From: Raillietiella orientalis
Taxonomy: Eukaryota
Length of the DNA stretch: 49,517 bases
Reading direction: 5' to 3'
Assembly (NCBI GenBank): GCA_036172245.1
Contig: JAYWIR010000166.1
Span: forward strand, 1 to 49,517
Below the pieces are notes generated by a model that saw nothing but the letters and a program-made list of their open reading frames with translations, was not told the origin of the DNA and did not search any database. Positions 1 through 35,449 of this stretch are shown here, in pieces. Position numbers and translations under genes: made by a program. Within the stretch, counting starts at the first letter, position 1; every line of letters begins with the position of its first letter.

Positions 1-2900
1 GGTCTTTCTATCTTCCTCCCCGATCGCCGGAGCGCCTTCCGGAAGAAGAAGTCGCGAGACGTCCCGTTCCGGTAAATGCGCGCGTACAGGTAGGAGTAGA
101 ATTTGTTGAATAGGCCTTTTACCTAGTCGGGGGTGGAGTGCCCCGAACCCTGGTCGTCCAGTAAGCTGGCCGATTTGGATTGCCACGCCTGCCACTCGGC
201 TCCCGCACGGTATTCGGCTGGCCTGCGTACGTCTGGTGTTCGCGCGTAACATCGAGATTGTAAATACCATCTCTCGTTTCGCACGCTTTATCCAAACCCG
301 GCAGGCAGGAGGTTTATAGGGAACTCGTCGCAAAAATTTCGGACCGAGCGCTTAAAGCGAACCCAGTCCTGAAGCGTCTGCAAACTGAAACCTCCTATGA
401 ATCCGCGGAGATGCTCCGCGGCTTCCGGAAGTTTAAGCCAGTCCCCAGGTAAGCACCACACAGATGACCGCGGACCGCTATCGCGTGGGCGCACCTCGAG
501 TACGATCCGGTCATGGTCCGGCAGTTCCGGCAGTGACTTGCCGCGCCTGCGCACGCGTGAGCATAGGTGCTGGACAAGAAACACGTGATCAATGCTGTCG
601 GCAATTTCCGGATCTCCCTCGAACAAGTTTCGCGTGTGCATCTCTGCGCACAGCTCGTTCACTTGGTCCCGAAGTGTGTCGGACGCACCTGACAGCAGGC
701 GCAGGTTAACGTCACCTGCGATTAGGTGCGCTTTGCGCACTCTTACTTCGTCCAGATATTCGCGTCTCGGTAAGGAAGAAATCTCTTTTTGCCTTTGCCG
801 TTAGCGCGTCTCTGCCGCTTGGGGCGTACACGGTGGTAATGACCAGATCGATGGAGTCGGACCACCTGATAGTCACCTGCCCGACGCGAGCGGCACTATC
901 GAACCGTACGCCTTTTGCCGCAGGCTCGACAGCTGGACGAAGCAGGAACGCGACACCGCAAGATTCAACGGTGCCGCAACGCCACAGCAGCCGTCCATCC
1001 GAGATAAGCTCCTTCTCCGTTGCTTGATCTGCGGAGATCACGTGGATCTCTTGCAGAAGTACCAGGTCGAACGATGCCAGGGTGGAGGCCACGTCTCGTC
1101 TCTTGCCGTCCTCGCTTAGCCCGTTGACTTTCCAACAGGCAATTCGCAGACGGCGGCAATAGGCGATTGCAGGCATTAAGGCTTGGAACGTGGCGTTGCA
1201 GCACCTGTCAACAAACAGGTGGGAGGGACGAGTAAGGGGACCGCGGCCATCTGAGGCACTTGAAGCACCTGGGGCACAGACTCTACCCTTTCCGTCCCTC
1301 CGATGTCGCAGCGTGAGGTTACCTCACGAGGAGAGTACCCGGAGTTCCCCACTTGATTTCACGCTCGCTTCCCTCAATTATCTTACTTTCTTCCACGGAC
1401 GGGATAACTTTGCGGGTAGCCTTCTTCGTGCAATTGGCCTTCGTGCGGGAGGCCGCGATGCCGCAGGCTGTGTTTTCTGCCTCTGCGTCAGAGTTCGGAA
1501 TCTCCGAATTCTTGATCGAGGTCAGACGCCTTAAGGCCTTTTTCGTGGATTTAAGGGGACGCTGCAAGGACGCACCGAGCTCCTCCGCCGCTCGCAGAAA
1601 AGCGACGTCGTCGAGCATGCGTTCGACGACGGACGCCACCGCCAGGTCGATAGCCTCCGGCATTAATTCGGCGGAGGGCTGAAAGTCGGCAGCCACGAGT
1701 GCATTTTTGCCGCTCTTTTCGACCGCAGGAATGCGCTTGATGACGACAGAGCAGCGTTTGATATTTTCGCGACGCGGCAAATTCTCGCTGCGTTTCGCGA
1801 CATTTTTTTTGCTTCCTTGAGGCTTTCCTGCCTCTTGGATTTTACTACCTGCCATCCAGATTCCTGGACGTTCTGCTCGACCTTGTCCGAGTTTTCCAAG
1901 ATCTCGGTGGTGACCTTCACCTGGGGCACGATAGTTGTTTTTCGAGCGGCGGCTCTCTCTCCGGCTGCCTGAACTCGTCTTTTTCTCGCCGCGCGTTTTT
2001 TTGCATTCCGTGCGGACGCGACGCGGACTTTATTTTGCGGGCACACTGGAAGAGTGTGCCCGGGCTGCTTGCATTGCTCGCACTGCAAGTGGGGGCACCT
2101 TTTTTTCAGGGGACCTGAAGTGCTGCAATGCCCGCAGAAATGCGGCTTACCGACATACCAGATGTCAACGGGTTCGCCGTTGACCTCCAGCTTGTTTGGT
2201 AGGGACCAACCCTCGCGGACCGTGATGCGTGCGGAAGATATACCGCAATTCAGAAGATCGAACTCCCAAAACGGAGTAGGCCTTTTCCACAACGCGTAGA
2301 CGGTTCCGAATTTGATTAATTCCGTCCGGAAAGCTTCTTCGGCCATCCGGAAGGTGATTCCGAGGAGGTGGATCACGATAGATCTATCCTCCGTGATGAG
2401 GAGGAGCCGGCGATTCTTCAAAGGAACAGGTGTACGGAGCAAACGCTAGGCAAGACTTTCTTCTTTGCAAATCACATCAACGTACTGTCCATTACTCCTG
2501 ATAGTCATCGCGAAGAGCTCCTCCTGGGGTACTTTGAGGTAGTGCATCGCTTTCGAGAAAACGCGTGCACTCTCGAAGGAGTAAAGGTTGCCTACCTTGT
2601 AGAGTAGAGGAAGATTGTACCCCTCCTCCAGGTAGGCTTTCAACTTAGTTGCAGCCGCTTGCGTTGGCGCCGCAGCCGCGGAACTCCAGATTGTCCCTAG
2701 CGAGGGAGTCGCTTCTGTGAGGGCGGTTGCCCTTATATCCATTGATTCAGAAGGCGACATAGACGTCGCCCCCTCCTTAACATTGGTGGTGGTCCCAGGC
2801 ATTGCTTCGTAGCCACCACCGAATTTACTGGCCCACAAAAAAAAAAAGAAGAAAAATAAATCCACAAACGCTCAAGAGCGAAACAAAAACCCGTGCGCTC
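1..2900 (-). mobile_element. E1: Tx1/L1-clade non-LTR retrotransposon, 5' part (5'UTR, ORF1, APE domain of ORF2; 3' part runs off the window)
   Basis: ORF1 pieces 2446-2865, 1663-2442 (CGHCSTSGPLKKRC, CEQCKQPGHTLPVC) and 1319-1855. ORF2 starts at 1176 with APE motifs (IACWKVNGL, LLQEIH, TVYAPSG, GDVN, SIDHV, PDHD). Contains stops and frameshifts. The 5' end abuts plus-strand ORF2 sequence of E2. Confidence 0.9.
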
Positions 2901-3433
2901 TCGATCGAGGACTGGGACGATCTGAAAAGATCGGTCCGCGAGTTCTGCTGTCGGTTACCATTGCACCTGGTTCCCCGCGGCTTCGGGGAGGGTGTCGCGA
3001 ACAGCAGATCCTATCTGCTGGCGCGTACTTTCTCCCGATGTTCGGACGTGCGGTGTCTGGCGGAGTACAAAGCCTGGGCCGAGCGCCAGGTTTGACAGTC
3101 TGAAGCGGCTTGTCTGCTCGATGACGCTGGACAGGAATGCACGGCTGCAGCCGAAGTACACCGCGTAATCAAGCGCTACTACTTCTGGTTGTACGCGGAG
3201 GAGCTCACGGAATGCAGTCTCTTTGAGCTGCTTCTTCCGACGGGTAACCCTGCTATCGACGAAGAGGAACGCGACAGATTGGATTGGCCCTTCAAGGCGT
3301 AAGAAGTATCTTCCTCTATAGCGGGCCTGAAGAGGCGTAAGGCGCCTAGGGAGGATGGCCTGCCCGCGGATTTCTTTCAGTGCTTCCCGGCGGAGCTCGT
3401 CCCCCTGGTGCTAAGCCTTTTCTCGCTGATGCG
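2901..3433 (+). mobile_element. E2 left piece: Tx1-like ORF2 (APE-RT linker to KAPxEDGLP)
   Basis: Translates IEDWDDLKRSVREFCCRLPL...LKRRKAPREDGLPADFFQ...LFSLMR, homologous to E4 ORF2. Continues at 14858 after an 11-bp TSD. Confidence 0.88.
3423..3433 (+). repeat. Target-site duplication of E3, left copy (TCGCTGATGCG; right copy 14858-14868)
   Basis: Exact 11-bp direct repeat flanking E3. Joining the flanks restores the host reading ...LFSLMRETGDVPASFR... Confidence 0.9.
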
Positions 3434-5535
3434 TTTTAAACCCGGTTGCGCCGGGACGTTTATTTGTGAAAACGAACCACAATCCTCAAGGCAAATTCAT
3501 CCTTTCTAGACACAAGAAACGCCCATACAGAAAGTTCAGTTCAGAAAGATCACCGGCACGCAGGTTGCCTTCCAAAAGAAAGGAACAGAGGGAGAGGGAT
3601 ACAAAATAAACAAAACATAAGAAAACAAACAGAGAAACAGTGGAGGTTGGGGTCAGGGATCCATGGTAGTAAACGTTCCTGATCTTTCTAGAAGCGCTGT
3701 TTGACAATGGCGAATTCCCTGGAGACTTTCCTGCGCAGATGAGGCCACTTGACAGCTGCTTTCATAAGGTTCGCAGCGATTCTGGCGGCGTCCGTTCGCT
3801 GCGAGCTTTCTTCTAGTTTACGGCGAGCGATCACGATGGCGCGGATGCAAGAGATTGTTGCGATAACAGCGCATTTATTTAGTCCGTCTTTGCTGAATAA
3901 GCGTCGAAGCAGGTCTGTGGCAGTGTCCTGAGGACGACGAAGTGCCGAAGCAAGTCTCCGCCATAACTCCCGCAAGTCACTACACTCAAGGAGCAGGTGC
4001 GTAAGCGATTCTATCGCCCCGCACCTGAGGCAGTTCGGGGAGACGACTTTCCCTGTAACCAAGTTTCTGCGCTTATTGCACTAGAATCCCCAGTGCAGAA
4101 AAAGAAGAACATCCTGTTTCCATCAAAGCGGGAACACGGAGCTGTCCACACACAAAGAAGGGACCACAAGATATTCAGGGAATAATCCAAGAACCTCACT
4201 CTAACGAAGAAGTCCCTTTGACTGGTAACGAGGAGTGGCAGCGTCTAACAACACGCTCGTTCTGCAGCCGCTCAGCAGTCTTCCCACTTTTAGAATGCTG
4301 CAGAAGAACTCTCACCTTGCCGGTTGTCTACTGTCGTTGTTTGCCCTCAGAGCAGATAGCGCTGCGGCGATGAATGAGACGGCTACCTGGGACCAAAGCG
4401 ACCAGTCCTGTAGGATCACTCTTAGCGGTTTGCGTAAGAGGCCCTGTGAGGGTCGCAATTGCTCTGGGCGCACATCGAAAGTGAACGTCCAGTGCTCCAG
4501 AGCTACCTGCTGCCGAGGATTAAAATTGGAGGGGCGGCAGGAAATTCAGGAATGGGCTAACAGCAACGAGGACAAATGCCTCAGTGGGTAGCCAAATCCA
4601 GTTCTCCGGCGGAGGTTGCGCGGCAGCAACGAAAGCAATCCTGCACTGCCGACACATCGCTGGAGAATATGGCGAGCCGGAGCACACCAGTGACAAGACC
4701 ACAATTTCCCACATAAGGATAGAAGCCGGAATTGCACTTGCAGTCGAATCTTCTGGATGGTCAGGATTCTTAGTCCTGCGTCCTAGCATGGCGTTACCAA
4801 ATCTTTGAGGCGAACCCTGGATCGCGCAGCTCCCCGCATGACCTTACGTAGGAGACGCTGCGCCCGGAGTTTAACCACACAGGGAGGTGGGCAAACAAAA
4901 AATAAGGGGCGGAGGAGGGGGGGAAGGGAAGTGTTCCATATGCACGTTTTTTCGGCAAGACGAACTTGCCCACCAGGAACGGGCCTAGAGCCATCCCTGC
5001 CTTTTGAAGCCAGGCCGACCACGATTCAGACGAGCAGAAGTCGCCCAACGGTACGCCCAGGTACTTGAAGTAAATAAGCGTTGGGGTCCCCAGGCGGATC
5101 CAGTCGGCCTGTCCCTCCCACGACGCACCCACTGTCACGACGGAGCACTTCGCCCTGTTAACGCTCATGCTCGCTCCACGACGGATCAGCTCGAAGAAGT
5201 CTTGGACCGAGTCCGGAGGAGTAGACATGGGCAACAGAAGCAGAAGGTCGTCGGCGTTTGCTGCCGCGAACGGAGTTCACGGAGAGGCGCTGGGCAGTAC
5301 GGCCAGCGTCAGCCTGTACGCTTGTAGCACCAACTCGAAGTAGATGCTGAAGAACAACAGGTTTAAGCTATCGCCCTGCCTAATGCCTCTGCGCACGGCC
5401 ACTCCGTACACGCGGGAGCCACTGAAATACAAGTTGATAATCGCGTGGCGCTAGCAGGAGCGCAAGTACAGGAGAAGATGATTCGAAAGCCCAAGACGCT
5501 CCAGGAGCTCCAAGAGGCGTTCCTGGTTTAGGCAG

Positions 5536-5550
5536 TCGAACGCCTTGTGC
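5536..5550 (+). repeat. Target-site duplication of E4, left copy (TCGAACGCCTTGTGC; right copy TCGAATGCTTTGTGC at 10980-10994)
   Basis: 15-bp direct repeat with two C/T differences. On the minus strand both copies encode HKAF(D) of the E3 RT motif AVDLHKAFDCLNQ. Confidence 0.88.
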
Positions 5551-5643
5551 GCTCTAGGGTGGACGTGTTTTCTCGGTGCTCCTCGTGCCAGGAAGTCTCC
5601 CCCAGTGCAAGCGTCGTGTGGTTCAGTGGTCGATCAGGCAGCG

Positions 5644-7318
5644 ATGCCTGACGCGACCACCAGGAATGGCCAGGGGGCAGCGGCAACGCCGACCCCAGAG
5701 GCGATGGAGAGCCAGGGGGCGGCGGAAACGTCGCCCCCAGAGGCGATGGAGGTGAGGGCATCCGCATCAACAGAATCGGTCTTCTCTGCAGCGCGGGCGT
5801 GGAGCGCCGTTCTGTCGGCGCCATCGCCTGCAGCCGCGGCGGAATTGTCGGCCTATGTAGAGGAGGGGTACAACCCCTCATTGTTCTACAAGGTAGGCAA
5901 TTTATATTCTTTAGAGAGCGCGTGCGCCTTCTCGAAGGGCATGCGCGCTCTCGATGTGAAAGAGGAGGAGCTCAGCGCTATGACCATCCGCAGCGGGGGT
6001 CAGTACGTTGAGGTCATCTGCAAACATGCAGAGCTGGCCGAACGACTGCTTAAAACCCCCGTTGGGATGGGGACGCGCAGGCTTCTCCCCACTACGGCGG
6101 ACCGCAGCATGGTGGTCCACCTGTTAGGCGTGACGGCGCGAATGCGCAAAGATCAGGTTCGCGCCGCTTTGGAACAGTTTGGAACGGTCCACGCGCAGTG
6201 GTCGAAAGTTAGTCCTCTCGAGGACTACACGGGGCTGCAACACGGCCTCACTGCTGCGCGCGTGACCGTTCGGGAGGGCTGCACTCTTCCCCACAAACTG
6301 GTGGTCGAAGGCGAAACCGTCGAAATCTGGTATGTGGAAAAGCCGAAATACTGTGGCTTCTGCAATACGTCGGGCCACCTCAAAAAAAGGTGTCCCAATG
6401 TGCAGTGCCAAGTATGCGGCACAATGAGCCACACGAGGGAGGTGTGCCCAAAAGCAGCAGTGCGAATGGTTTACAAGAGAAACCTTAAAAAACGCGCATG
6501 GCTTCTGCAGAAAAGACTGGAGGCGAAAGCTGCCGCGAAGGCTGTGCCACCCGCGCCCAAGACCCAGGCCGCATCCGAGACCCCGGAGACCAACGCCGAA
6601 AAAGTTGAGGGAGCAGGCCAGGAGACTGAGTGGCAAGTGGCAACAGCCAAAAAATCAAAGAAGGAGAGGAGGATGGAAAAGAAAATCGCCTACCAACAGG
6701 AGAAGAAAGAGCAGGGTAGCGCGATAATTAAAGAGTGCAGCGTCGTTGTCGAACGCGTTCTCGATGTTGCCGAACGCTGCCGGAAAGAACTCGCCGCTAC
6801 CGACGACATCCCTCTGTTGACACAGTCAAAAGCGAGGGGAGCGAGCCGGCGGCGGCGTCCGTCATCGACACCACCATCGATGACGTAGCCTTCGCGCGAG
6901 CCGCGGAGGAGCTGGCAGCCGCGTTGCAGCCAGAACCCTTAAGGCAGGCAAGAAGGCCGTAAGGCGTCCGGCCTCCCCTGAGGAGTCCCCCACTTCCGAC
7001 CCCGAGGTGGAGGCCGGAAGCGGAGCCTCCGTTTCCACAGAACCGCGCAAGAAGGCTGGACGTAAGTCCACAAAGCCAAGGAAGCTCGTCTCCCCCGCCG
7101 AAGGGGAAGAGATGGCTTCCGCAAGCGAGGGTGCCATGAGCGTGGGAAACTCTCGGGAACCGTCGCCGGAGAGACTCCCACGCACGGACACGGAGGGGAT
7201 GGAGGGGGTGGAGGCCAAACAGGTGCCTCAGGTGCCTGAGAAGGCCAAAACCCTCATGGACATCCCGCCCGCCTCGCAAGAGGAGGGCTCCCCCACACCT
7301 TAATCTTCCAAGCAGTAA
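5644..7318 (+). pseudogene. E4 ORF1 (gag-like nucleic-acid chaperone with two CCHC zinc knuckles), disrupted near 6840-6960
   Basis: ATG at 5644 (homologous ATG in E5). CGFCNTSGHLKKRC and CQVCGTMSHTREVC. Basic/low-complexity C-terminus continues in ORF 7007-7303 after a frameshift and a stop. Confidence 0.85.
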
Positions 7319-10300
7319 TGCCGGGAATCTCCTCCTTCCGTCGTCTGCGCATCGCCGTTTGGAACGTGAACGGCATGACAGACGCCGGCAGGAGACGAGA
7401 CATGGCCGCCCTTCTGGAGTCCTACGACCTTGCGCTGCTGCAGGAGATCCACGTGATCTCTGCAGAACAAGCGCAAGAGATCGAACGGATCTCCGGAGGG
7501 CGGCTATGGTACAGGTGTGGGAGAGCGAAAAGTTGCGGTGTCGCCTACCTGCTTCGGCCAGCCGTCGAGGCCGCGGCTCGGGGCGTGCGGTTCGACGATC
7601 ACGGTCGTGTCGGCCAGCTGACTCTCAGGTGGTCCGACTCGATCGATCTGATCGTCACGAACGTGTACGCACCGAGCGGCAAGGACCTGATGAACAGGAG
7701 GGCGAGGAAAGAGTTTTTCCTTGCCCTCCGGCGAGACTGGCTGACCGAAGCAGGCGTGCGGAATGCCCATCTGGTTGCAGGCGATTTCAACGTTCGCCTG
7801 AAACCAGATGAGCAGAATCCCGAGCGTGACCTGGTCAACGAGGTGTGCATGGCGGTGCACACCTGTAATTTGTTGGCCAGTGCACCGGGGATGGAAGACA
7901 GCATTGACCACGTGTTTCTTGACGAGCACCTGTGCCCTCGCGTGGGCAGGCGCGGCAAGTTACCGTGCGAGCTGTCCGACCATCGCCCGCTAGTCCTCGA
8001 GATCCATCCGCGCGACAGGGGCCCCCCCTCGTCAGCGTGGCGTCTCCCAGGGGACTGGCTGAAGCTCCCGGACGCGGCGGAACATCTCCGCACGTTCATA
8101 CGGAGCTTCAGGCTGCGGACACTCCAGGATTGGGACCGCTTCAAGCGGTCGGTCCAGGAGTTCTGCGACCAGTTTCCTCTGCACCGCCTACCTACGGGTT
8201 TTGGGACCGGGGTCCGTAACGAACGAGCCTACCTGCAGGCCTGTCGTTACGCCAGGACCCCCGACATCCGCAGGCTGGCGGAATACAAAGCGGGAGCCTT
8301 GAGGCAAGCCTGGCAGTCCGGATCGGCCAGCTTACTGGACGATCAGGGCCAGGAGCACTCGGCACCTGCCCAAATGCGCGGCCTGCTGCGGAGTTACTAC
8401 TCTTCCTTGTATGCCAAAGCACCTCCGGAGAGAAACGTCTTACGACTCCTGCTTCCGGAAGGCGCTCCAACGATCGGGGAGGAGCAGAGAAAGACCCTCG
8501 ACGAGCCTTTCACGATGGACGAGATCCTCTCGGCCATCGGAAAGCTCAAGAGGCGAAAGGCTCCAGGGGAGGACGGACTGCCCGCGAAGTTTTATTAAAC
8601 TTTCGCGGCTGTGCTTACCCCCCTGGTACAGCAACTCACCTTGCTGATACGCGAAACAGGTGACGTTCGCGCCAACATCTTCATCAGCCCGGAACAGACA
8701 TATGCTGTTCCCGGGCGTAAAATGGAGGCGAACCTGTTCCACGCTTCTACCTGGCTAGAGCTCCAACATGAAAAGAGCTTGGTGCGCAGCCGAAATTCCG
8801 GTGAGTGCGCCGGCAAGGGGTTGGATGGTCGGGTGGGGGAGGGAGCCCTTACGGTCGCAATCGACTTGCGGAAAGCATTCGATTGCGTCGACCAGAATCT
8901 CCTTCTGGAGCTTCTTGAACGCTTGGGCTTCCCTGCCTAATTAGTGGCATATCTGCGCTCATGCTGGCGCGACGCGCTCATCAATGTTACTTTTAGCGGG
9001 CAGACCGTGCACGGCGTGCCGGTGCGGCGTGGAATCCGGCAGGGAGACAGCCTGAGCCCCTCGCTCTTCAGTACCTACTTTGAGTTTGTACTGAGAGCGT
9101 CCAGGGGAACTCTGGCGCACCTGCCGTACCACTGTGCCGGTACGCCGGCCGTTTCAGCATACGCGGACGACCTTCTGCTGCTGCTCCCTGTGTCCACCCC
9201 GGCTGCGGCGGTCGAGGAGTACTTCGACCTGCTGCATCGGGGAACCGGACTTACGGTGAACACGGCGAAGTCGTCCGTGATGCCAGTTGGTGTGGCGTGG
9301 GCAGGGCAGCAGGACTGAGTCCGTTCGGGGATCTTCACGGTGAGGTACTTTAAGTACCTTTATGTGCTGTTGGGGGACTACTCCCCTGCGGAAGCGTGGT
9401 CCGGCTGCCTCCAAAAAGTAGAGACGGCGATCGGCCCGTTCCGAGGCGGCAGGTTTTTCCTGCCTGAACGGGCCGCTGTTTGGAACACGTTCGCGGCTCC
9501 TCTCCTCCGTCCCCTGTTTCTTGTTTACCCCTTCACAGAGAGAATAAAAAAGCGGACGAAGGACCCCCTCCGTATCGCCCTTTGGGGCAACGGGAGGGCC
9601 GGATTCCGCTTAAAGAATTTGTGCGCTCCTCGTCGGGATGGTAATCTGGGCCTCCTGACGCTGGAGCTGCTGGAGCTTCAGCTTCAGTTTTGCTTGTCAG
9701 CACTCGTTCCAGAGTTGTGGTGCACCTGTTGGTGCGTCCCTGCAAGTCTCCTTCTCTAGCAAGCCACCGGCAAGACGAGACTGACGTCGTTTCTTGAACT
9801 CCGTTGCCGCGTCAACCGATGCGGACTCCAGCTACGGAGTGTGGCTGCGCTGTATCGGAAAAACCCAGGATTGCTCACCTGTCGCCCGTTGAGCGGAAGT
9901 GCCTGGTTGCAGGAAACCGTTTGAACGTGGGGACAGTTCGGCATGCAACGCTCCCAACAGGAACGAAGGTTCGTGTTTGGGGGTTACAGAAGTTGCACGC
10001 TTCGCCAGATCCTGGAGGATCCAAAGAAGAGAGCGTGGGCAGGAAGAACCCCCTTCGCTGCTGCGCTGCCATCCCTGATGGAAGATCTAGACAGCGATGT
10101 TGCGGCGAAGTGGGTGGTTACAGTAACAATCTCCGGAATAGAGAAGAAGATAGGAGAGTGGAAGACGGGCCAGTTAACAGACGTTGCTACCCCGATTACG
10201 CCTCCCAATGGACTTCTGCGCTCGGGCGCGCTGCTTGATGTTCCCATTTTACATCTGAAGTTTCCCCCGGTGCTCGTTAACACTTTCGCCCTCCCCTTAA

Positions 10301-10749
10301 AATGGCAGGAGTCGGCTCTCCTGTTGCAGCACTGGGGACTCCCCTGCGACGCCCGCCGACAGCACTGGACCTGGGGAGCGGTGGACCCCTATTGCGTCAG
10401 GTGTGGGGAACGGGAGTGCCTTCCCCACCTGCTAGTGGACAGTGTTGCCCTTCGGCCCCTTTGGTTTCGCTTTGCCGCGGCCATCGGAATCCCCTGCGGC
10501 AATCCCAGGGACGCACTGAAAGCCCTCTTCGTTGCCGACGCCCTTCGGCCAGCGGCCTCGCTAGCAGCTTTGTGCTGCCTACGCGGGATCGTCACCGCTT
10601 GGAGCAAGGCTACGGGAGGACAGCGCGAACAGGTTGCCATCCTGCCAGCCTCCCAGTTCCTGAGGAGGGCGTCTCGATGGCCCCACCTGGATTCAGGAAT
10701 ACAGAAGGAGCTTGCCGGCATCCTGCAAAGGATGCAACGGCCCCATTAG
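7318..10749 (+). pseudogene. E4 ORF2: APE endonuclease + reverse transcriptase + C-terminal Cys motif, with premature stops and frameshifts
   Basis: IAVWNVNG, LLQEIH, NVYAP, GDFN, SIDHV, SDH (APE). KAPGEDGLP, DLRKAFDCV, GIRQGDSLSPSLF, AYADDL, KYL (RT). CVRCGERECLPHLLVDS. Stops at 8596, 8938, 9316 and 9757. Confidence 0.93.
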
Positions 10750-17495: not shown

Positions 17496-18653
17496 ACAAC
17501 GACGCTGAACTCTTTAATTGTCGTGCTACCCTGCTCTTTCTTCTTTTGTTGGTAGGCGATTGTTTTCTCCATCCTTCTCTCCTTCTTTGATTTTTTGGCC
17601 GTTGCCACCTGCCACCCATGCTCAAGTCCGGATCCCTGGACTTTTTCGGCGTTGTTCCCCGGGGTCTCGGGTCCGACCTTGGCCTTGGGCGCGAGTGGCG
17701 CAGCCTTCGCGGCAGCTTTCGCCGCCAGCCTTTTCTGCAGCAACTGAGCGCGTTTTTTAAGATTTCTCTTTAAAAGCACCCGCAGTGTTGCTTTTGGGCA
17801 CACCTCCCTCGTCTGAGCCATTGTGCCGCATACTTGGCACTGCACGTTGGGACACCTCCTTTTGAGGTATCCCGCCGTATTGCAGAAGCCGCAGTATTTC
17901 GGCTTCCCCACATACCATCGGTCGACGGTTTCGCCATCGACCACCAGTTTGTGGAAAAGAGTGCAGCCCTCCCAAACGGTCACGCAAGCAGCCGTGAGGT
18001 CGTGCTGCAGCCTCGTGTTGTCTTGAAAAGGACTAACTTTTGACCACTGCGCGTGGACCGTTCCGTATTCCTCCAACGCGGCGCGAACCTGTTCCTTCCG
18101 GATCCGCAAGGTCACGCCTAATAGGTTGACCACTATGCTGCGGTCCGCCGTAATGGGGAGGAGCCTGCGCGTTTTCATCACCACGGGGGTTTTAAGCAGT
18201 CGTTGGGCCATCCCTGCATGTTTGCAGATGACCCCAACGTACTGACCCCCGCTGCGGATGGTCATAGCGCTGAGCTCCTCCTCTTTCACATCGAGAGCGC
18301 GCATGCCCTTCGAGAAGGCACGCGCGCTCTCTAAAGAATACAAATTGCGTGCCTTGTAGATAAGCGAAGGGTTACACCCCTCTTCTACATAGGCCGACAA
18401 TTCCGCCGCCGCTGCAGGCGATGGCGGCGAAACGACGGCGCTCCACGCCCGCGCTGCAGAGGGGACCGAATCTGTGGGGGCGGACGCCCCCACCTCCATC
18501 GCCTCTGGGGGCGACGTTGCCGCTGCCCCCTGCAATCCATGGTGTTTGCGTAAGGCATCTCTGTCTGATCGACCACCGAACCACACAACGCTAGCGATAG
18601 AGAAGACTTCCTGGCACGAAAAGCACTGAGGAAGCACGTCCGCCCTCGAGAGC
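17496..18653 (-). mobile_element. E5: 5'UTR + most of ORF1 of a close sister of E4; inserted antisense in E6 RT
   Basis: ORF 17345-18736 aligns residue-by-residue with E4 ORF1 (ATG at 18558). 5' end GCTCTCGAGGGCGGACGTG versus E4 GCTCTAGGGTGGACGTG. The right flank reads (H)KAFECVDH on the plus strand. Confidence 0.9.
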
Positions 18654-20913
18654 ATAAGGCGTTTGAGTGCGTGGACCACGATCTTTTTTTGGATCTTTTG
18701 GGTCGCATGGGTTTGGCACCCTCCTTGATCAATCACCTGCGCTCTTGCTAGCGCAGTGCATCATAAACCTTTCGTTCAGCTGTCAAAATGTGTAAGGCAT
18801 GCAGATGCGCCGCGGGTTAAGGCAGGGCGATAGCTTTAGTCCCCTGATCTTTGGCGCCTACTACGATTTGGTGCTATGAGCGTACAGGGCGATTTCGGTT
18901 GCCTTCTTGATCTCGTGTCACGGCACGCCCGCAGCAGTAGCGTAGGCCAACGATTTTCTGCTGATGTTACCCATGTCCACCACGGCAGCCGCAGTCGACG
19001 ATTTGTTTGATCAGTGAAGCCGCGAAATGGGACTGCAGCTGAACAAGGCAATGTCGTCGGTGGTGGCGGTTGGTGCGACGTGGGTTGAACGGCCTGACTG
19101 GATCAGCTTGGGGATCCCCGCGGACAGGTCCCTGAAGTACCATGACGTGACGTTGGGTGATTTCTGCCCGTTAGAATATGGTCAGATTTTCTCCAGAAGG
19201 TAGAGCTGGCGATCGACCCATTCCTCGAAGGCAGGTTCCTCTTGCAGCAAAGGGCCGTTGTATGGAACGCGTTCGCAGCTCCCATCCTTCGCCCCAAGCT
19301 TTTTGTTTGACACGTTTCACCCATTTCAAGAAGAGAACAAAGGATGTACTCTGCATCGCCCTCTGGGGCAAGGGGAGACCTAGATTGCCTCTGAAGGACT
19401 TAAGCGCTCCGCGTCGGGACGGTGGTCTTTGCCTCTTGACGCTGAAGCGCCTGGACATACAGCTGCAATGGCTTACTTAGCCATCGCAGCGAAGTTGTGG
19501 AGCACCCCTTGGTGCGTTCTGTCCGCCTTCTTGCCAGCTGTGTCTCCAGGACTCAAGGACTAGCGTGTTTTCTTCTGTGTTTCTGCCGGGAGATGCGAAT
19601 ATGCGGCCTGTTCCTTGCACTCATGTCCACCTTGGCTAAGGAGAACAGCTGGATAGTAGTCAATCTTGCCAAGCTCCTCCGCATGGCTAGAGGAGAGTGC
19701 TAGCACGTGGGCGAAGATACATGTGAGGAGCAACGAAACGTAAAACTTCTGGCGAATCGGCATCTTCTCCCGGCGCACTCTGCGTGAAACTCTTGAATTT
19801 CCAGAGGATTGCAGGTAGGCGGAAGGGTCATCTTTTGCTTTGGCGTTCCCCTTCCACCAAAGGGTGCTTTACAACAGCCGGAAGCAGAGTTTTCAAGTCT
19901 GCTACCATGTCGCAGGTAGAGAGAAGTCGATGAGCGCCGGACTCGGTGGGAATTCTGTTATTTCCCCTGAGTTGCAACTGGGCGGAGACGACCTCCCTTG
20001 CTGCGTCGCTGCCCTTCCTAAGGAGGGAGCGTCACGGCAGCCGATTGCCGAGGTGGAAAGTCTCCTGTTGGATCGCAGGCAGCGAGAAGATAATGAGGGG
20101 CCTCACCATGGGTCAACTGGCGGACGTCACAATCCCGATCACCCAGCCGCGAGGACTTAAGAAATGGGGCGAGCTGCTCACCGTCCCAATGGATGAGCTC
20201 AAGTGGCCCTCGGTGATGAACGACTTCAGGATCCTTCCCCTGAAGTTGCCAGAGTCGGCGTTGCTGCTGTTATACTAGGGTTTACCCTGCAACGCATGTG
20301 GCGTCAACTGGACAATGGACGCAATGTATCTTGCGTGTGCCAGGTGTGGGGATCGGGAATCGCTCCTTCACCTCATCGTTGATAGTACTGCTTTCCAACT
20401 CCTTTGGGAACGGCTGGGGATGACCCTCGGGCTCCCAATGGGCAGTGCCCCTAGATACGTTTACCGTCACCTCTTCGTGCGGGACGCTCTGCATCCAGCC
20501 GCTGCCCTCGCAGAACTATGCTGCGTTCGAGGCATCGTGGCGGACTGGAGCGATGCCAATGACGCAGATCGAGACCCGAACGAGAGGAATGCCATCCAGC
20601 CTGCAATGCTCTTCATGCAGATAGCTGCCTGATGACCCCATCTTGGACCATTGCTAATGAACCTCGAGGGCTTCCTTCGACGGATGGGCCCTCCTCTCAG
20701 TAATGAGTGTTCCCTTCCTCTCCCAACTAATTCTTTTGGTTCCTTTATTTTTTATTTTTTATTTTTTTTTCCCCCCATCCCTTTTCACTGCCGAGGAGTG
20801 TTACCCCGGGCTGCGTACCGGCATCCCGACAGGTCCAGTGTCTATGGCCGCGTGTGGGGCCTGGTACCTCGGAATGTAGAGTTTTTGAATAAACGTTCCG
20901 GGCGTTCCCGGGT
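18654..20913 (+). mobile_element. E6: decayed Tx1-like element, RT motif KAFD to 3' end
   Basis: KAFECVDHDL, RQGDS, LKDLSAPRRDGGL, CARCGDRESLLHLIVDS. T-rich 3'UTR; ends AATAAACGTTCCGGGCGTTCCCGGGT. Confidence 0.85.
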
Positions 20914-21097
20914 GGCAACAGCATATCCGCGGGGTATGCGGCGCAGAGATCTGCTCCCAGAACTCGCGAACTGACACCTTCTTGCGGTCCGAGTCGTCAA
21001 GATTCCTGGAGATGACGCCTCCCAGGAATTGGCAAAGATGTTCATCCGCACCTGAGATGCGCTTGCACTCCCTGAGTAGATGCCACGCCCTGGATGG
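20914..21097 (-). mobile_element. E7: Tx1-like ORF2 fragment just downstream of APE (host of E6; possibly the same element as E10)
   Basis: Minus strand reads PSRAWHLLRECKRISGADEHLCQFL...DDSDRKKVSVREFWEQ, homologous to E4 SSAWRLPGDWLKLPDAAEHLRTFI...QDWDRFKRSVQEFCDQ. Confidence 0.75.
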
Positions 21098-21397
21098 TTT
21101 TTCACCCTGGTGAGCCGAGGCTTTTATTATGAAGATGTTTTACATCAAAAAAAAATTCTGTAATAAAGTCTTTTTTGTCAATATGTTTTTCCTTTTTCGG
21201 TCAGCACAAAAGTTGTGACTGTCTTGGGGCACTTGCTGTTACCGATCATGAGGCCGATTAGGTCGACCACACTGGTGCAGGGGCGGGAAAAAAAATTACG
21301 AAAAAAAAAGCCTGGAAGGGTAATGTTTTTTGGGAGAGGTGGAAAGAAACGGGTTTACGGTAGGCCGTAAGGAGGCGTCTGCATCCTGTTTCGGATG
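21098..21397 (-). mobile_element. E8: ~300-bp 3'-end fragment of a second Tx1-like subfamily
   Basis: Last ORF2 codons IRNRMQTPPYGLP*, T-rich UTR, end AATAAAAGCCTCGGCTCACCAGGGTGAAAAA. Confidence 0.75.
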
Positions 21398-22270
21398 TTT
21401 TCACCTGGGTAAGTAAGGGCTTTTATTATTTTAAAAAAACAAAATTATAATTATTAATTGCAGTCGATTGAGTTTTCATTGTTTTTGTGTTCCTGTCGGA
21501 ACACATTTACGTATTGTTCTGTACTTGTTTACCGACTTGAGTGCCGGTAAGGTCTACTCAACTCGCGAAGGGGACGGAAAAAAGAAAAAAAATGCTTGAG
21601 GGACATTGTTTATGGGGAGAGGGAGGGAAGGGAAGGGATCCAGGGGGAGGCCTCTGCATCTGGTTCCGCATGCTAACAAGTGCTGGCAGAATTTTCCTCA
21701 GTCAGCGACAACGGGGAGCCTTCTCAATAAAGATCACCGGCCAGTGAATGGCATTCGGACTGCTGTGGCCTCTTATGGACGCGTTCCACTTGTCCAGTAT
21801 TCCTCGTATGCAGCAGAGAACTGCAACACACGCGGCACTTGGCAGGGAGTTCCGCATCAAGAAACAACGAAAAATGTTTCTGGGGTCGCCCACCGCTACG
21901 TTTATGACCGACGAGAGTCGATCCCACGTTAGACCGAGGTCAACACATTCGATTAGTAAGTGGGGGAAGGTCTCCCTTTCACCGCACTCTGCTCATTTGG
22001 CATCCACGATCCCTAAGGTCCAGTGAGACAGGCGTGCTCTGCTTAGAAGTCCACAATGGAGCAGAAGCAACGCCGTCTCCTGCCTTTTCAGGGGGAGGGT
22101 GCCGTTATGCCAAGACGCTGTGGCTACTTCACCTCCTCCAGAGGCACGTAGAGCAGCTCGCCCCAGAGTACAAGTCCATTCGGCGGTACACTCTGGGTTC
22201 TAGCGTCCGCTAGTTCCCAGGACGTCCACGCCTTCATCCGTTTTCTCCTGCCTCCGATAAGGCTGGACAC
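21398..22270 (-). mobile_element. E9: 3' fragment (ORF2 C-terminus + 3'UTR) of the second subfamily
   Basis: HWTLGIVDAK*AECGERETFPHLL, AACVAVLCCIRGILDKW. End AATAAAAGCCCTTACTTACCCAGGTGAAAA. The 5' boundary is approximate. Confidence 0.78.
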
Positions 22271-22279
22271 TTCCCACGT

Positions 22280-23866
22280 TGACGGGGAGTGGGAAATTCT
22301 CTTCCTTTATTTAGACGCAGATGGCTTCCCCTACGGCTGCCTGTGCGTTCCCCTCCTTCCTGGTAGGGATGCTCCTCCTTTGATTCTTGGACTTCCATTT
22401 TGTTTTCTTTGAAGGCACCTCCCCGTAGGAGGACGAAATTCCGACATCCAGATCGTAATCACCTGCGTCAGGTGCCTTGGTCGGCCTTCTCAAGACCTTT
22501 CGCGCCGGATTCTCACAGCCTTCCTGTACGGCCGCGAGCTCTTCCGCATTCTCGCTCACGGGTAGCGCGTCGCGCGGCTCATACTTTGTTTGCACAGAAG
22601 GTTAGCCTTCCGAAATTGCGGCTTTGACGCAAACGAGACGGTGAATATCTCCCCCGGTGGCGTCCTCTAAGGTCTCCACGCTCTCTTAGGTAACAGAGCA
22701 TTCGCGGAGCAATGCGCGGCGTTGTTTGCTATTAAAAGGTTTTCTTTCATCTTCCGGTTACGTGACCTATGTTCTCTCTAGTATTTTCGGTTTCGTCGTC
22801 CTCAAGCCCTCGTTTCTACCAGCGTCGTCGGGAGTTTTCTGTATCAGCGTTTGCTGGGAGGGTCCGGGATGTGGTTTTTGGTTCGCCTAGCTGGTGCCTC
22901 TTTCGGCTTTTTCGTTTGCTCCGCGGGTTTTCTTTTTTTTTAAAAGCAGGGGGAGCAGATGTTTCACGCTTTTACATATTTTTCGGAGGTGGACCTTTTC
23001 TCTGCTTATGAAACACTTGGTGCGAGGCCACCTTTTTTATCATGTGCCCTGTGGCAAAATAGTGCTCATAGCACTTGGGTTTGCCCACGTACCAGACATT
23101 AATCGTATCGTTGTCGATGTCGAGCGTGTGGATTAGCCCGTCGTTTTTGTGCACGGTTTCACGCCCTGCTGTACTTCCATGCCACTGTACAGTCTTTCAT
23201 TTGTTTGGAATACTTTGGTTTTGGTCTAGAGCGCGTGTACCGTGCCGTACTTACAGACTTTCTACTGCACGCCGGTCTTCCACATGCGAAGGGTAACTCC
23301 CGTGAGATGAGCCACTACGGAGCGGTGCTCAGTAACAGGGAAGAGCTTTCTGCCCTCCAGCGTAATGGAGGCATTCAACAGGCGTTGAGTTGCCTTGTAT
23401 CCCTGCAAGTCATGTCCACCCATTGACACCCGTTAAGCACGGAAGGACCTTCCAGCTCTTCCTCCACGACGTTTCACCGCTGCAACTCTGTTTTGAATTT
23501 GCGAGCAGTGCTTCAGACAAAGATATTACCTACCCTGTAAATTAAGGACGGCTTATATCCTTGTGCCCTGTAGGCGGCTTGTTCTGCAATGGCTGCACAG
23601 GATGTTGATGCAGCCACGGCAGTCCAGGTTCTCGTCGTGAGAGAAGACTGCTCCGGGAGTACGGTTACCCCCTTTCTCAAGAGGGCAGTTGCCCTTCCTT
23701 CCGTGGGTCGGTCGCCCCTACTTCCGTGGGTTCGAAAGAGGAATTGGCCTCTCCCCTCCGATATCCATCGCGGTCTCCTCAGGCATTTCTGCCACAGGAT
23801 ACCGGCGATGTACAACTCACAAACACAATCGAAAAAAAGATTCCCGAACTGTCGCAGTCGGCGCGC
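22280..23866 (-). mobile_element. E10: 5'UTR + decayed ORF1; inserted antisense in E11 RT
   Basis: MPEETAMDIG..., AAYRAQGYKPSLIYRVGN, INVWYVGKPKCYEHYFATGH. The right flank reads IIRSRAKVLAKCWLDRLGRVAQIFI on the plus strand (RT N-terminal region). Confidence 0.78.
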
Positions 23867-26213
23867 AAAAATAATACGTTCTCGCGCCAAGGTGCTGGCG
23901 AAATGTTGGCTTGACCGCCTGGGGCGGGTGGCGCAAATCTTCATCATCCCGGAGAAAACATAAGCTGTTCCCGTGCGAAGCCTGGACTCAACCTGCTATT
24001 CGCAAAGACGTGGTTTCACTCCAATGCACCAGGGTAAATGTAACGAACATGGTAAGCACTGTGATTTCTGGGACGTCCGCTGGTGGTTCGTGGGGTGGTA
24101 GAGAGCGCGATGGGGCCCTCGTAGTTGCAATGGATTTGCGAAAAGCTTTCGATTGCGTGCACCAGGTGCTTCTGCTGAAGTTTCTTGAACGCTTGGGCTT
24201 TCCGTCCCCTTTCCGTCGCTCTTGCTGGCGCAACGCGCTGAGCAGCATTTATTTTAGTGGTAGAAACGTGCTGGAGGTGCTGTGCGCCGTGGGATACGGA
24301 TGGACGACAGCTTAAGCTCCTTGCTCTTCAGCACCCAGTTCTAGGTGGTACTGAGGGCGTACACGGAGATTCTAGCTCGCCTGCCGCGCGTGTGTCCAGG
24401 CAAAATGGCCGCATCGTCATATGCGGACGATGTTCTGATGCTGTTCGACAGACGTCGGCGGTCGAAAACATTTTCGAGCCGGTGCTCCGCGGGACAGAGC
24501 TGGAGGTGAAGAGAGCAAAGTCTTCCGTGGTAGCAGTTGGTTGGGCGTGGGGAGAGCAGCAGGACTGATTCCGCTTCAAGATCCTCACTGTGCCATACTT
24601 GAAGTATTACTCGGTGTGCTGCTGGGGGGCATTCTTAGGCGATGCGTGGTCTAGTTGTCTCTAAAAGCCTCGGAATGCGTTCGGTCCGTTCCTGAATGGC
24701 AAGGTTTTCTTGTCCAAATGGGCCGTGGTGTGAAAAAGGCTGGTGGCTTTTCTTTTTGCCCGTTCCTTTTTGTTGTTCCTCCACCGAGAGGTATAATCAA
24801 GCCGACGAAGGACCTATTGAGAATTGCCCTTTGGGGCAGAGGGAGGTTCCGAGTCCGCCTGAAGGACTTGTGCGCTCCATGTCGTTACGGAGGCTTCCTT
24901 CTCTTGACCCTGGAGCGGTTAAGCTGCAGCTCAAGATGAGGACTTTAGCCCTAGTGGCGAAGCGGTGCAGCACCTTTTAGTGCGTACCTGCATTACACTT
25001 GGTTCAGCAAACCAGCATCTGCGCGGACTCGTCTAACTTCCTCGCAGACAAGGTCAGCTTCTCTTCTGTTGTAGTGTCGAGCTTTGACGCGTGAGTGAGC
25101 TGATCTGTACGAACAGCTGGATCTCCAGCCGGCTCTCGAATGGTCCTGCTTTGCTGCAGAAAAGCCTTCGCACATGGGCCAAGAACAAGAAAGCAAGCTC
25201 GGAGTTGCGGAAGCGACTGCTGCACTCCTTTTATGACCACCGCTTTATGCAGAACGTGATCGCGTAGCGCGCCCTGCATGCATGAGACGGAAGGAATTCT
25301 CTTTCGAAAGCTCTCCCTTTCCACAAAGAGCACTTGGGTAGTAGCCAGCTGACAAAAGGGGAAGTCAGATGTAGCATCTCGGGTAGAGAGAAAGAACAGG
25401 TGGTCAGAAGACAAGCTAGCAAGCTAACGACCCGACCCTAAGTGCCCCACCAAAACGATTATTGCAGTGGGGCGAGCTCCTAAGCATTTCTCTGGAAAGA
25501 CCTGAGTGGCTCCAGTGTTGAGAAATACCCTGGTCCTCTTCTCAAATAGCAGGAGTCGGCATTTCTGGTGTTGTGCTGGAGAAACCTTAGCAGCGCCCGC
25601 CGATCTCATTGGACGTGGGAGGCAATGTACCCGAACTGTGTCAGATGTGGGGAACGGGAATCCCTCCCGCACCTGTTTCCTGACTGTGTTGCCCTTTGGT
25701 TCTTGTAATTGCGGTTCGCAACGGCCATTAGTGCACCCATGAACGACCCTAGAGACGTGTTAAAAAGACTCTTTGTGCGCGAAGCCCTTTCGCCAGCCGT
25801 AGCCCTAGCAGCCCATTGTTGCCTATATGGGATTGTAGCCTCATCAAGAAACGTCTCTGACGGACAGCACTGTGCAAGAGTAATCCTTCCCACCTTTTGC
25901 TTCCTGAGTACGGCAGCTGGATGGCCCATTCTAAGGAGTATCTGGACATAACTTGCTGACATCCTGCAAAGGATATATAGGACGGTCCCCTGCGAAAAGT
26001 GATCCCCTTCCACGAGCCCCCTCTGCTTTAGTAAATAGTGTTTTATTTTTAATTTTTGTTTGTCTCTCTCCTTCCGCTGCCGAGTGGATCTTCGCCGGCC
26101 TGCGTGCTAGTCACACTGCAAGTTCCATGTTTGTTTTGGTACGTTGTAGGGTCTATGGCTCTACACATGCATGTTTATTGAGAAATAAACGCCCCAGCGC
26201 ACCCGGAAGTTAA
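23867..26213 (+). mobile_element. E11: decayed Tx1-like element, RT to 3' end
   Basis: MDLRKAFDCVHQ, SYADDVL, LKDLCAPCRYGG, CVRCGERESL. End AATAAACGCCCCAGCGCACCCGGAAGTTAA, followed by minus-strand ORF1 of E12. Confidence 0.82.
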
Positions 26214-26762
26214 GCAGTAGAAGGATCCTATGTGACAGGGAAGAGCTTGCGCCCGTTAACCGTAATGAAGGTGTTCAGCAAGCAAAGCGCCAGACATGCA
26301 TCTCTGCAAGTAAGCTGCACTTTCTGAGCCCCTTTAACGACAAAGAGGCCCTCTAGGTCTTCCTCACTCACCTTCAGCCGTTGCAGCTCCTCTTCGAAGG
26401 AGCGTGCAATTCGTTCGTCGAACACACTGACTACCTTGTGGACCAAAAACGCTTGTAACCACTGGCCTTGTAGGCATTCAGCTCCGCAAGTGCAGCCGTG
26501 GATGGTGTTGCAACGACGGCACGCCATCTCTTCGACGATGGCGAAGAGGGTCTCGAAGGGGCAGTTGCCTCTGATTCTGATGAGGCAGTTGCCCCGGATT
26601 CCGATGAGGCAGATGCCCTACTTCTATAAGTGGAGGAGAGCAAGTCGCCTTTCCACCCCAATCTCAATCGCAGTGTCATCAGGAGTTTCTGCCATGGGAC
26701 ACTGTCTAACTCTCACAACACACAAACTCAAGAAATGCTTTCCACCGACAAGTCCGTAGAGC
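26214..26762 (-). mobile_element. E12: 5'UTR + ORF1 N-terminus; inserted antisense in E13
   Basis: 5' end GCTCTACGGACTTG. MAETPDDTAIEIG, AALAELNAYKASGY, LLNTFITVNGRKLFPVT. Confidence 0.75.
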
Positions 26763-27377
26763 GATGCAAAAACAAGTCCACTCGCAAGAATGACAAGCGG
26801 GTGAGTAAATCCGAGCTGCGCATGGTGCAGGGAGCGGGATTCCCTCCGCACTTGACAGTTGCTTCTGCCACCTTTGGGGACGTTTCGCAACCCCCTATGG
26901 ATTGCGGTGGGCAGTCCTTATTTTCGTCTCCTCTTCTGCAAAACTGCCTGCATCCAGCCGCAACCGTAGCTGCGCTCAGCTGCTTTCACGGTATTGTGGT
27001 TGCCTGGAGTAGATCCGACAAAGTAGAAGATGCAAACAAGAGGGATGTCAAGGAGTGTGCAGCTCGCTTTCAGCGAATTGCAACCCTATTGCCTCACCTA
27101 GAAAACAGGCAAGAGGACCTTGTCGGCATCCTTACAAGGATAAAACCTCTTCCGAGCTCACAGTGATCTCTTCCTTATTCTCCAGGATACGGTTGGTGTT
27201 TTGAATTTATTTTATTTTTCTTTTTGTTTTTTCCCATCGCTTTTAGCTGCTGCGGAGAATCAAGTCGGTCTGCGCACCGAAGACCCTGCAGACCAGTGAT
27301 AGTATCAACCGTAGCGGGGCCTTACACTGCAATTTTTGTCAAGTTGTAATAAACGTCCCGGCTTGACCAGGTAACAA
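26763..27377 (+). mobile_element. E13: ORF2 C-terminus + 3'UTR
   Basis: VNPSCAWCRERDSL, LHPAATVAALSCFHGIVVAWS. T-rich UTR; end AATAAACGTCCCGGCTTGACCAGGTAA, followed by the minus-strand APE of E14. Confidence 0.8.
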
Positions 27378-28387
27378 CGTCTAATTGTACGTACCGCAGC
27401 CTATTAGCGAGCTTTGGCTGGCTTCAACAGGTAGGTCAACATCTGTTTGCCACAGTAGCTTCCTACCTGTCAGCCTCTTTATATCCTGGGCGTCCTCTCT
27501 CCTTAGAGCGTGCGTCTTTTACAGAAGAGTCCAGTCAAAAGGTCGCAGGGTGTCGGCCACGCTGATACCCTTGCCTTCGTGACTCAGCCCATTGACATTC
27601 GAACAGGCTATGCATAGTTGCCGGCAAGAAGATATCCCACGCATCACTCGACTGATAGTGGTGGAGATCGTGTTACCGCCTCCTGTTGAGGAGGAGGTTG
27701 GTCGTTGTCCGGCTGGACTGTCGGCGCTTGCCGGAATTTGCGAACGTCTTACACTCCCCGCAGTATTTTTCCTTTCCCACGTACCAGATGTCAACGAGTT
27801 CGTCTTTGATTTCCAGATTGTAAGAAGTTCAATGTTTTCGCAAAGAGTTACCCACGTGGTCACTCGATCACTGAATGCTCCTCTGAAAGTGAAGGCGTTG
27901 GGCTTGTGTCACATCGCGTTAGTCTTCGAGAATCGGTTCAATTCTGTGCGGATGGCTTCCCCACCCATCCGCACAGTTGTTTCTGTTAGGTGGATCGCTA
28001 TTCAGTGATACACCGTGTGCGGTAGGAGATTTTGTCTGTCGAAAGGTACAGGAGTGCAGAGCAGTTTGTGTGCAGATGAGCACCGCGAAATGTTCCTCGC
28101 TCCGTACGGAGAAGCACACAATCTCTTCATCAACTCTGTCCATCTTTCGGATGGCATTACCGAATTTCCGCGTGGTTAGTGGTGAATATAAGTTGCCTAC
28201 CTCATAAAGGAGAGCAGGGTGTAGCCTCCCTTTATGTAGGCCTCGATTTATGCGGCCCTCTCGGGCAGAGACTTCTCAACCACCTTGTTGCACGCTCGCA
28301 CCTGGATTGCGGGGACGATATCGTGGTAGGGCATGACCTTACCCCCATAGGTGGAAAAGATGTGGCTCTCACGACTCCCATCGCATG
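27378..28387 (-). mobile_element. E14: decayed ORF1 (internally deleted) + start of ORF2 APE
   Basis: AYIKGGYTLL-type ORF1 motif near 28210-28250. TGATG junction, then MRGISSCRQLCIACSNVNGLSHEGK...DTLRPFD. Confidence 0.75.
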
Positions 28388-30894: not shown

Positions 30895-31023
30895 CGAATT
30901 AGACTGGGATAGGTTATCATAGGATGAGTTACGTAGGTTAGGCTCGGTTAGGTTCCGTAGAACGTAGGTTAGGTAAGGACAGGTGTGGCTAAGTTAGGTT
31001 CGCTTAGGTTGCGTTGGATAGGT
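30895..31023 (+). repeat. Degenerate (TTAGG)n pentamer tract
   Basis: GTAGGTTAGGCTCGGTTAGGTTCCG...GTAGGTTAGGTAAGG... with 5-nt periodicity. Confidence 0.8.
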
Positions 31024-32175: not shown

Positions 32176-32189
32176 AGCCGCCAGGATTA

Positions 32190-35445: not shown

Positions 35446-35449
35446 TCCG

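Follow-up and report, generated by a model that had tools for sequence, protein, structure and literature searches.

Antisense nesting and a recurrent insertion site in a stack of L1-superfamily retrotransposons from Raillietiella orientalis

We analyzed a stretch of 49,517 nucleotides (nt) from Raillietiella orientalis (contig JAYWIR010000166.1 of assembly GCA_036172245.1, positions 1 to 49,517 of the forward strand; hereafter the window). Positions 1-28387 are a solid stack of retrotransposons without long terminal repeats (non-LTR elements), long interspersed nuclear elements (LINEs) that carry an apurinic/apyrimidinic endonuclease (APE) and a reverse transcriptase (RT) and are mutually 30-55% identical in amino acid sequence. 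In these 28 kb of family sequence we counted 13 nested insertion events, ten made by a main group of elements and three by a second subfamily. All ten main-group insertions are antisense to their hosts, target-site duplications (TSDs) accompany the nesting, and two elements of one lineage entered the same 14-bp site in two divergent hosts. The explanation we prefer, to which we would give about an even chance, is that a multi-lineage family targets its own relatives by sequence-specific, strand-fixed target-primed reverse transcription (TPRT).

The element map (E1 to E16) was made by six-frame tblastn of E4, E3 and individual regions against the window. These comparisons reproduced, within a few bases, the segmentation given in a preliminary description of the same DNA, and all 12 of the junctions reported there hold, with a shared element terminus on one side and, on the other, internal sequence of a family member in opposite orientation. 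The left part of the stack is centered on E4 (5550-10979, + strand), a complete element of 5,430 bp with an open reading frame 1 (ORF1) containing CCHC knuckles, an APE, an RT and a C-terminal Cys/His motif. E4 divides E3 (- strand) into a 3' part running from RT motif A to the 3' end (3433-5549, 3' terminus at 3433) and a 5' part with the 5' untranslated region (UTR), a long ORF1, the APE and the start of the RT (10980-14857, 5' terminus at 14857). E3 divides E2 (+ strand) in the same way: the left visible piece, an APE-RT linker at 2900-3432, is broken by E1 at 2900 and by E3 at 3432, and the right piece, from the RT to the 3' end, occupies 14858-17494 with its 3' terminus at 17494. In the six-frame comparison E2 continues collinearly across E3, and E3 across E4. 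E1 (1-2899, - strand) consists of ORF1 and part of the APE, as placed by a tblastn match to E4 5659-8496, opposite in strand, and by alignment of its 5' end, which abuts the interior of E2 at 2899; its 3' part lies left of the window.

To the right of E2, the series continues with E5 (17495-18652, - strand; 5' UTR and an open ORF1 of 471 codons, 5' terminus at 18652), E6 (18653-20912, + strand; RT motif A to the 3' terminus) and E7 (20913-21097, - strand), a short APE-RT linker piece that matches E3, E1 and E4 and is host to both E6 and E8. Beyond the second-subfamily elements E8 and E9 lie E10 (about 22770-23865, - strand; 5' UTR and ORF1, its 5' terminus at 23865 set against internal sequence of E11), E11 (23866-26212, + strand; RT to the 3' terminus) and E12 (26213-26761, - strand), of which the first 549 nt are present, related to the 5' region of E10 and with the 5' terminus at 26761. 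The stack ends with the last 615 nt of E13, including its 3' terminus (26762-27376, + strand), and with the start of the APE and ORF1 of E14 (27377-28387, - strand), which is cut by E15 at 28387. All 13 scored insertions at this one locus lie in family members, so that the earlier proposal of a LINE family inserting into its own copies is borne out.

The main-group elements share both termini. By alignment, E1, E3, E4, E5, E10 and E12 have a common 5' start, C(G/T)CTC..GGGCGGACGTG, which all six visible main-group 5' ends reach except that E1 is short by about 8 nt. At the other end, E2, E3, E4, E6, E11 and E13 terminate in AATAAACG(C/T)C..CGGC..CC.GG followed by a short A-rich tail, and the main group lacks a poly(A) tail. 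The string AATAAACG occurs seven times against 1.38 expected; five of the seven occurrences are at these 3' ends, one is in the ORF1 frame of E3 and one lies beyond the stack. We considered the copy within E3, at 13941, as the mark of a hidden sense insert and rejected it, because it falls within a 303-amino-acid frame (13895-14803) that carries the ORF1 homology of E3 itself. A hairpin had been described at the 3' ends; its stem is just 4-5 bp and single folds were no better than shuffles. RNAalifold gave no consensus for it, and Rfam returned zero family matches.

E3 is flanked by the duplication TCGCTGATGC (3423-3432 and 14858-14867, the latter opening the right piece of E2), with 10 of 10 positions identical. 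E4 is flanked by 14-bp copies at 5536-5549 and 10980-10993, with 12 of 14 identical. As the preliminary description cautioned, these are the only TSD pairs within the window, two of a possible ten for the main group. The duplications of 10 and 14 bp and the absence of terminal repetition are hallmarks of TPRT, and together with the shared termini they confirm that the insertions are real nested TPRT events. The two E4 copies differ by two C-to-T changes, both on the right and one at a CpG, which may hint at methylation-driven decay of the cluster.

The ten antisense events are E1 into E2, E3 into E2, E4 into E3, E2 into E5, E5 into E6, E6 into E7, E10 into E11, E11 into E12, E12 into E13 and E13 into E14. 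The antisense rule proposed for the main group thus stands throughout this window (two-sided binomial 0.002, a post hoc value, as the hypothesis was formed on the same data). A check of each fragment for collinearity with E4 and E3 turned up no hidden sense insertions. We also rejected strand asymmetry of a short motif as the cause of the bias. The sense strands are nearly symmetric in composition (A.222, T.220, G.285, C.272), and even those 4- to 6-mers with the strongest skew reach only about 2-3.6:1, so a loose short motif cannot yield ten antisense insertions in ten.

The stack had also been described as about ten levels deep and strictly alternating. At the window start the nesting depth is indeed at least nine, but the chain is not continuous: the 427 bp between E9 and E10 (22343-22769) have no assignment, with zero six-frame matches at 24 bits or more. 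E7 and E10, on either side, may belong to a single element that has suffered a deletion, or may be two separate elements. Under uniform insertion, a depth of nine or more is expected over 5e-5 of element length for a cluster of 11 elements, 5% for 100 and 31% for 1000. The depth is therefore improbable for a small cluster and not for a very large one, and it is only suggestive.

E4 and E5 are the sole close pair in the stack at 83-87% nucleotide identity, where every other pair is at 78% or less. In each, ORF1 stays open for about 470 codons; between the two the synonymous divergence (dS) is 0.44 and the ratio of nonsynonymous to synonymous divergence (dN/dS) is 0.47, which indicates that they derive from distinct active masters of one lineage, here called lineage A, and are not duplicates of one insertion. 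The RTs of their respective hosts, E3 and E6, are about 43% identical in amino acids. Both inserts have their 5' end against the same 14-mer, in matching orientation and at positions that agree within 0-2 nt. In E3 the 14-mer lies at 5536-5549 (+ strand), is antisense of HKAFD and serves as the left copy of the E4 TSD; in E6 it lies at 18653-18666 (- strand), is antisense of HKAFE and directly adjoins the 5' end of E5. Written in the orientation of the insert it reads TCGAACGCCTTGTG or TCAAACGCCTTATG, and on the host sense strand it codes for H-K-A-F-D/E, residues conserved in the RT. Across the entire window the degenerate pattern TCRAACGCCTTRTG is matched perfectly just twice, and both matches are occupied. 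The homologous codons of E2, E11 and E4 itself are unoccupied and read AAAGCA, AAATCG or AAAGCT, as against AAGGCG at the occupied core.

A coincidence within 2 nt and in the same orientation would arise by chance with p of about 5e-4 for a prespecified pair, or about 0.02 for any of 45 pairs. Its occurrence in two divergent hosts points to sequence-specific target recognition; lineage A appears to be both site-specific and strand-specific, and it lacks its own target. For this pair at least, the suggestion that insertion is largely position-independent fails, the two elements having entered at the same nucleotide position and on the same strand of the 14-mer. Guidance by homology between the inserting RNA and its target, another mechanism that had been put forward, is unlikely, since E4 matches its own 14-mer target at only 10 of 14 positions (counted by eye). 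We further considered priming by the 3' end of the E4 RNA, as AACGCCT is common to the 3' motif and the 14-mer. By inspection this was rejected, because the cDNA would then start upstream of the terminal 25 nt or so that the copies keep.

Expressed in E4 coordinates, the ten main-group sites fall at about 6100, 6750, 7585, 8118, 8210, 8606, 8650, 8869, 8869 and 10365. They had been described as spread over ORF1, APE, RT and the C-terminus. Six of the ten are bunched in a 760-bp interval that runs from the end of the APE to RT motif A (scan p of about 0.03, for a window chosen post hoc; 0.10 when the site of E4 and E5 is counted once). The neighboring sites at 8118 and 8210, and at 8606 and 8650, are not the same at the codon level; E1 with E6 and E3 with E10 were rejected as further shared sites, their host alignments being offset by about 20-30 codons. 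The earlier statement that no flank consensus is shared is wrong for E4 and E5; at the other eight sites we, too, extracted none.

The second subfamily behaves differently. E8 (21098-21395, - strand) is a piece of 3' UTR only, about 300 bp long, whose 3' end at 21098 lies in E7. E9 (21396-22342, - strand) is 5'-truncated and has its 3' end at 21396, in the 3' UTR of E8 about 300 bp from the E8 3' end, and E15 (28388-29228, - strand), also 5'-truncated, has its 3' end in E14. Each has the same orientation as its host, so that all three insertions are sense. The preliminary description noted correctly that this subfamily does not follow the antisense rule; at three sense insertions in three it is not a mere exception. 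In place of the main-group 3' motif, E8 and E9 end in AATAAAAGCC, and in all three cases CAT(C/G)C directly follows the GTGAAAA(A) tail, with an offset of 0-1 nt. The 3' end of E15 (28388-28420, - strand) also contains a 9-bp inverted repeat, GTTTTTCAC ... GTGAAAAAC, by which the tail motif is present twice, in opposite senses.

In E4, ORF1 is open over 468 codons and has two CCHC-like knuckles, and ORF2 is broken into several frames. ORF1 has no Pfam match at E <=0.01, and its sole match in the PDB is to the AIR2 zinc-knuckle chain (E 2e-6). Pfam identifies Exo_endo_phos, the APE (E 1e-13), and RVT_1 (E 1e-9). Among solved structures the closest is human LINE-1 ORF2p (E 9e-15); the 21 PDB matches at E <=1 include no endonuclease chain of R1 or R2 type. 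The APE and RT domains and this top match place the family with the APE-type non-LTR retrotransposons, in the L1 superfamily. The database proteins nearest to the E4 APE ORF are two, at 23% identity. Among metagenome contigs, 254 stretches fit a peptide pattern and none encodes a relative by tblastn. A pattern for the lineage-A 5' end matched 119 metagenome stretches; 80 were compared with E4 by tblastn and blastn, none of the 80 was similar, and these are chance matches. The ORF1 region of E3 (12738-14803, - strand) exceeds its E4 counterpart by about 440 bp and consists of adjoining frames of 318 (12938-13891) and 303 codons with a single stop between them. Internal tandem duplications are present near the start of E4 ORF1 (42 bp x 2 at 5669-5751) and in the 3' region of E2 (104 bp x 1.9 at 16934-17128).

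The GC content of the left 28.4 kb is 51-60%, and long intact genes are absent from this part, where reading frames are broken. For most of the right 21 kb GC is 38-45%, rising to 51% at 46-48 kb, and none of 12 ORFs from 28.4-49.5 kb scored above the curated cutoff of Pfam. Just beyond E15 is E16 (29230-29646, + strand), a decayed, low-GC RT fragment covering the YADD region and possibly the outermost host. Further right are partly degenerate (TTAGG)n-type tracts at 35261-35432, 45816-45857, 47352-47404 and 47663-47848, the first of them in a region with an 80-bp higher-order unit (35265-35453). Between the last two lies an array of the pentamer (GGCCA)n, about 53 copies long (47405-47665). 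TTAGG is the arthropod-type telomere repeat; the tracts suggest a genome of arthropod type and not an algal one, and the locus may be subtelomeric or interstitial-telomeric heterochromatin. The same region contains repeat units of about 3-3.9 kb that are 88-97% identical (32182-35286, 37966-41863 and 41863-45754; also 30965-32173 with 35387-36598). Two of the large units are in tandem, each ends near TTAGG-like sequence, and small decayed LINE fragments lie within them (38107-38300 and 42280-42549). Outside the stack, just upstream of the TTAGG and GGCCA arrays, 46145-47163 (+ strand) is an ORF1 fragment of the same family, at most 52% identical in amino acids to E14 ORF1.

We propose that the stack was built by successive TPRT events of a multi-lineage L1-superfamily LINE family that would prefer its own family as target, with a target choice that would be sequence-specific and strand-fixed in each lineage. 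ORF2p, through its endonuclease or some other targeting part, would recognize a defined site in a sibling element and nick one strand, and this strand-specific nick would determine where the insert lands and which way it points. The site of lineage A would be TC(G/A)AACGCCTT(G/A)TG, which is antisense to conserved RT codons, those for His-Lys-Ala-Phe-(Asp/Glu), in other lineages; because its own copy of these codons differs, lineage A would not target itself. The second subfamily would follow a separate rule, inserting in sense orientation with CAT(C/G)C at the nick and leaving copies truncated at the 5' end. Since an insertion splits its site and old copies lose their sites by mutation, new inserts would fall mostly in recent copies, and a deep Russian-doll chain would result. 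The other eight main-group sites are presumably lineage-specific as well, with recognition probably by protein.

Several points weigh against this proposal. Recurrence of a site is shown for one lineage only, with n=2, and we extracted no flank consensus across the remaining eight main-group sites, which are all different. Pfam finds no DNA-binding domain in E4 beyond the APE and RT. The evidence is a single locus in which the left halves of nine elements lie beyond the window edge, and the gap at 22343-22769 interrupts the nesting chain. Moreover, site-specificity alone does not explain why at least eight lineages whose sites differ should all be antisense, when independent sites would be expected to divide about 50:50. 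It is possible that the shared strand has a cause beyond site recognition, in the form of a step that senses polarity through transcription or R-loops.

Such a step could also be the whole explanation. Host transcription would set the strand: an R-loop or an opened non-template strand would let the ribonucleoprotein nick the exposed sense strand, the cDNA would join the host sense strand, and the insert would be antisense, the taste of the endonuclease fixing only the exact nucleotide. This single step would account for ten antisense insertions at nine different sites by at least eight lineages. It would also account for a preference for the newest, still transcribed copy and hence for the deep chain, and it fits the recurrence seen for E4 and E5 if the lineage-A endonuclease has a local preference. 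However, the three second-subfamily insertions are all sense in the same hosts, and two events within 0-2 nt on a 14-mer imply sequence recognition strong enough to act alone. Transcription of the host elements is hypothetical here, and we regard transcription-set polarity as a rather doubtful account of the stack.

Orientation might alternatively be random at insertion and the bias a product of survival, with sense nests lost by recombination or single-strand annealing, or selected against, and antisense nests retained, for example because convergent transcripts feed RNA silencing. Direct repeats are deleted more readily than inverted repeats, and the locus is repeat-rich, adjoins (TTAGG)n tracts and is likely heterochromatin. 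Nevertheless, where insert and host can be aligned by blastn at all, they share only 65-78% of their nucleotides, which is too little for homologous recombination; the sense nests of the second subfamily persist here, three of three; and the recurrent 14-mer is left unexplained. Clusters of PIWI-interacting RNAs (piRNAs) of the unistrand type share one orientation, whereas orientation here alternates between + and - along the chromosome. A uniform orientation relative to the locus, the feature of a unistrand small-RNA trap, is therefore absent, and selection at a silencing trap, as the preliminary description had offered, is a poor fit. We consider differential survival unlikely. Misassembly or inversion within a repeat cluster is very improbable: although both ends and TSDs are in the window for E3 and E4 only, each breakpoint joins a true terminus to the interior of another copy, as nested insertion predicts, where inversions or chimeras would join interior to interior; E2 and E3 resume collinearly across inserts with TSDs; and the junction partners are different lineages, not palindromic copies.

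Returning to sequence-specific targeting of relatives, a stronger version can be suggested, which we put forward tentatively and consider somewhat improbable: that this is a LINE clade hyperparasitic on its own relatives, with an inherited rule to insert backwards into a sibling, a recognition site that each lineage evolves for itself on the antisense strand of sibling coding sequence, in one case within the RT active-site region, and immunity of each lineage's own copy of its site. If so, the strand rule would be heritable and mechanistic, whether through polarity sensing or antisense-strand recognition, and an arms race among lineages would have left alternating Russian-doll stacks beside telomere-type repeats. 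The competition would be between transposon lineages, not between transposon and host. Target-specific LINEs are models for safe-harbor integration and bear on the evolution of endonuclease specificity. Mutually targeting lineages would offer a compact natural setting in which to ask whether sequence, or the polarity of transcription and R-loops, determines the strand in TPRT; useful features are the fixed strand, the full-length copies and a site inside a rival's RT gene that the attacker itself lacks. For the reading of subtelomeric and centromeric assemblies, it matters that dense blocks of repeats in alternating orientation can arise without inversions.

Target specificity is also known from other LINEs. 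R1, R2, TRAS and SART combine sequence-specific nicking with fixed position and orientation and many full-length copies; unlike the elements described here, they belong to other clades and target host multicopy genes or telomeric repeats.

A closer likeness is to the Tx1 clade, for which the portions of Kojima (2015, PMC4494074) available to us describe insertion at fixed positions and orientations inside other transposons. The examples given there are Tx1L in Tx1D, Tx1-Mar in Mariner-N4_AMi, Tx1-8_Crp and Tx1-4_AMi in LTR elements, and Keno, Kibi and Koshi; the Tx1-Mar families use two positions of a Mariner element, one for each orientation (PMC4494074, same portions). The criterion for target preference in that text is that more than 20% of copies lie in one target (PMC4494074); lineage A has two of two copies in the same 14-mer, at one locus. 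As far as those portions describe the clade, lineage A behaves likewise, with a 14-bp site, a fixed strand and a precise 5' junction; the likeness concerns insertion behavior, and the label Tx1-like of the preliminary description is a putative one. It differs in that its targets are siblings, other lineages of one LINE family, with several lineages stacked on one another, and in that one site is within the RT-coding region.

Self-targeting is known from Zepp and ZeppL of green algae, which the available excerpts of Blanc (2012, PMC3446292) and Craig (2021, PMC8226300) present as L1-type LINEs that target their own copies and form GC-rich nested clusters. According to the same excerpts, the clusters are tandem arrays, mostly of 3' ends (PMC3446292, PMC8226300). 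Judged against these descriptions, the stack is alike in being a self-targeting cluster, and the second subfamily fits the pattern of tandem, same-orientation arrays of 5'-truncated 3' ends in all three of its insertions, including that of E9 in the 3' UTR of E8. The main group does not fit it: its insertions are antisense, its 5' ends are complete save for the short end of E1, poly(A) is lacking, and at least eight divergent lineages take part. We found no description of antisense self-nesting LINE stacks in the literature searched, most subscription papers being outside it. Compared with these target-specific and self-nesting LINEs, the behavior seen here is distinct in being antisense, mostly full-length and lineage-on-lineage.

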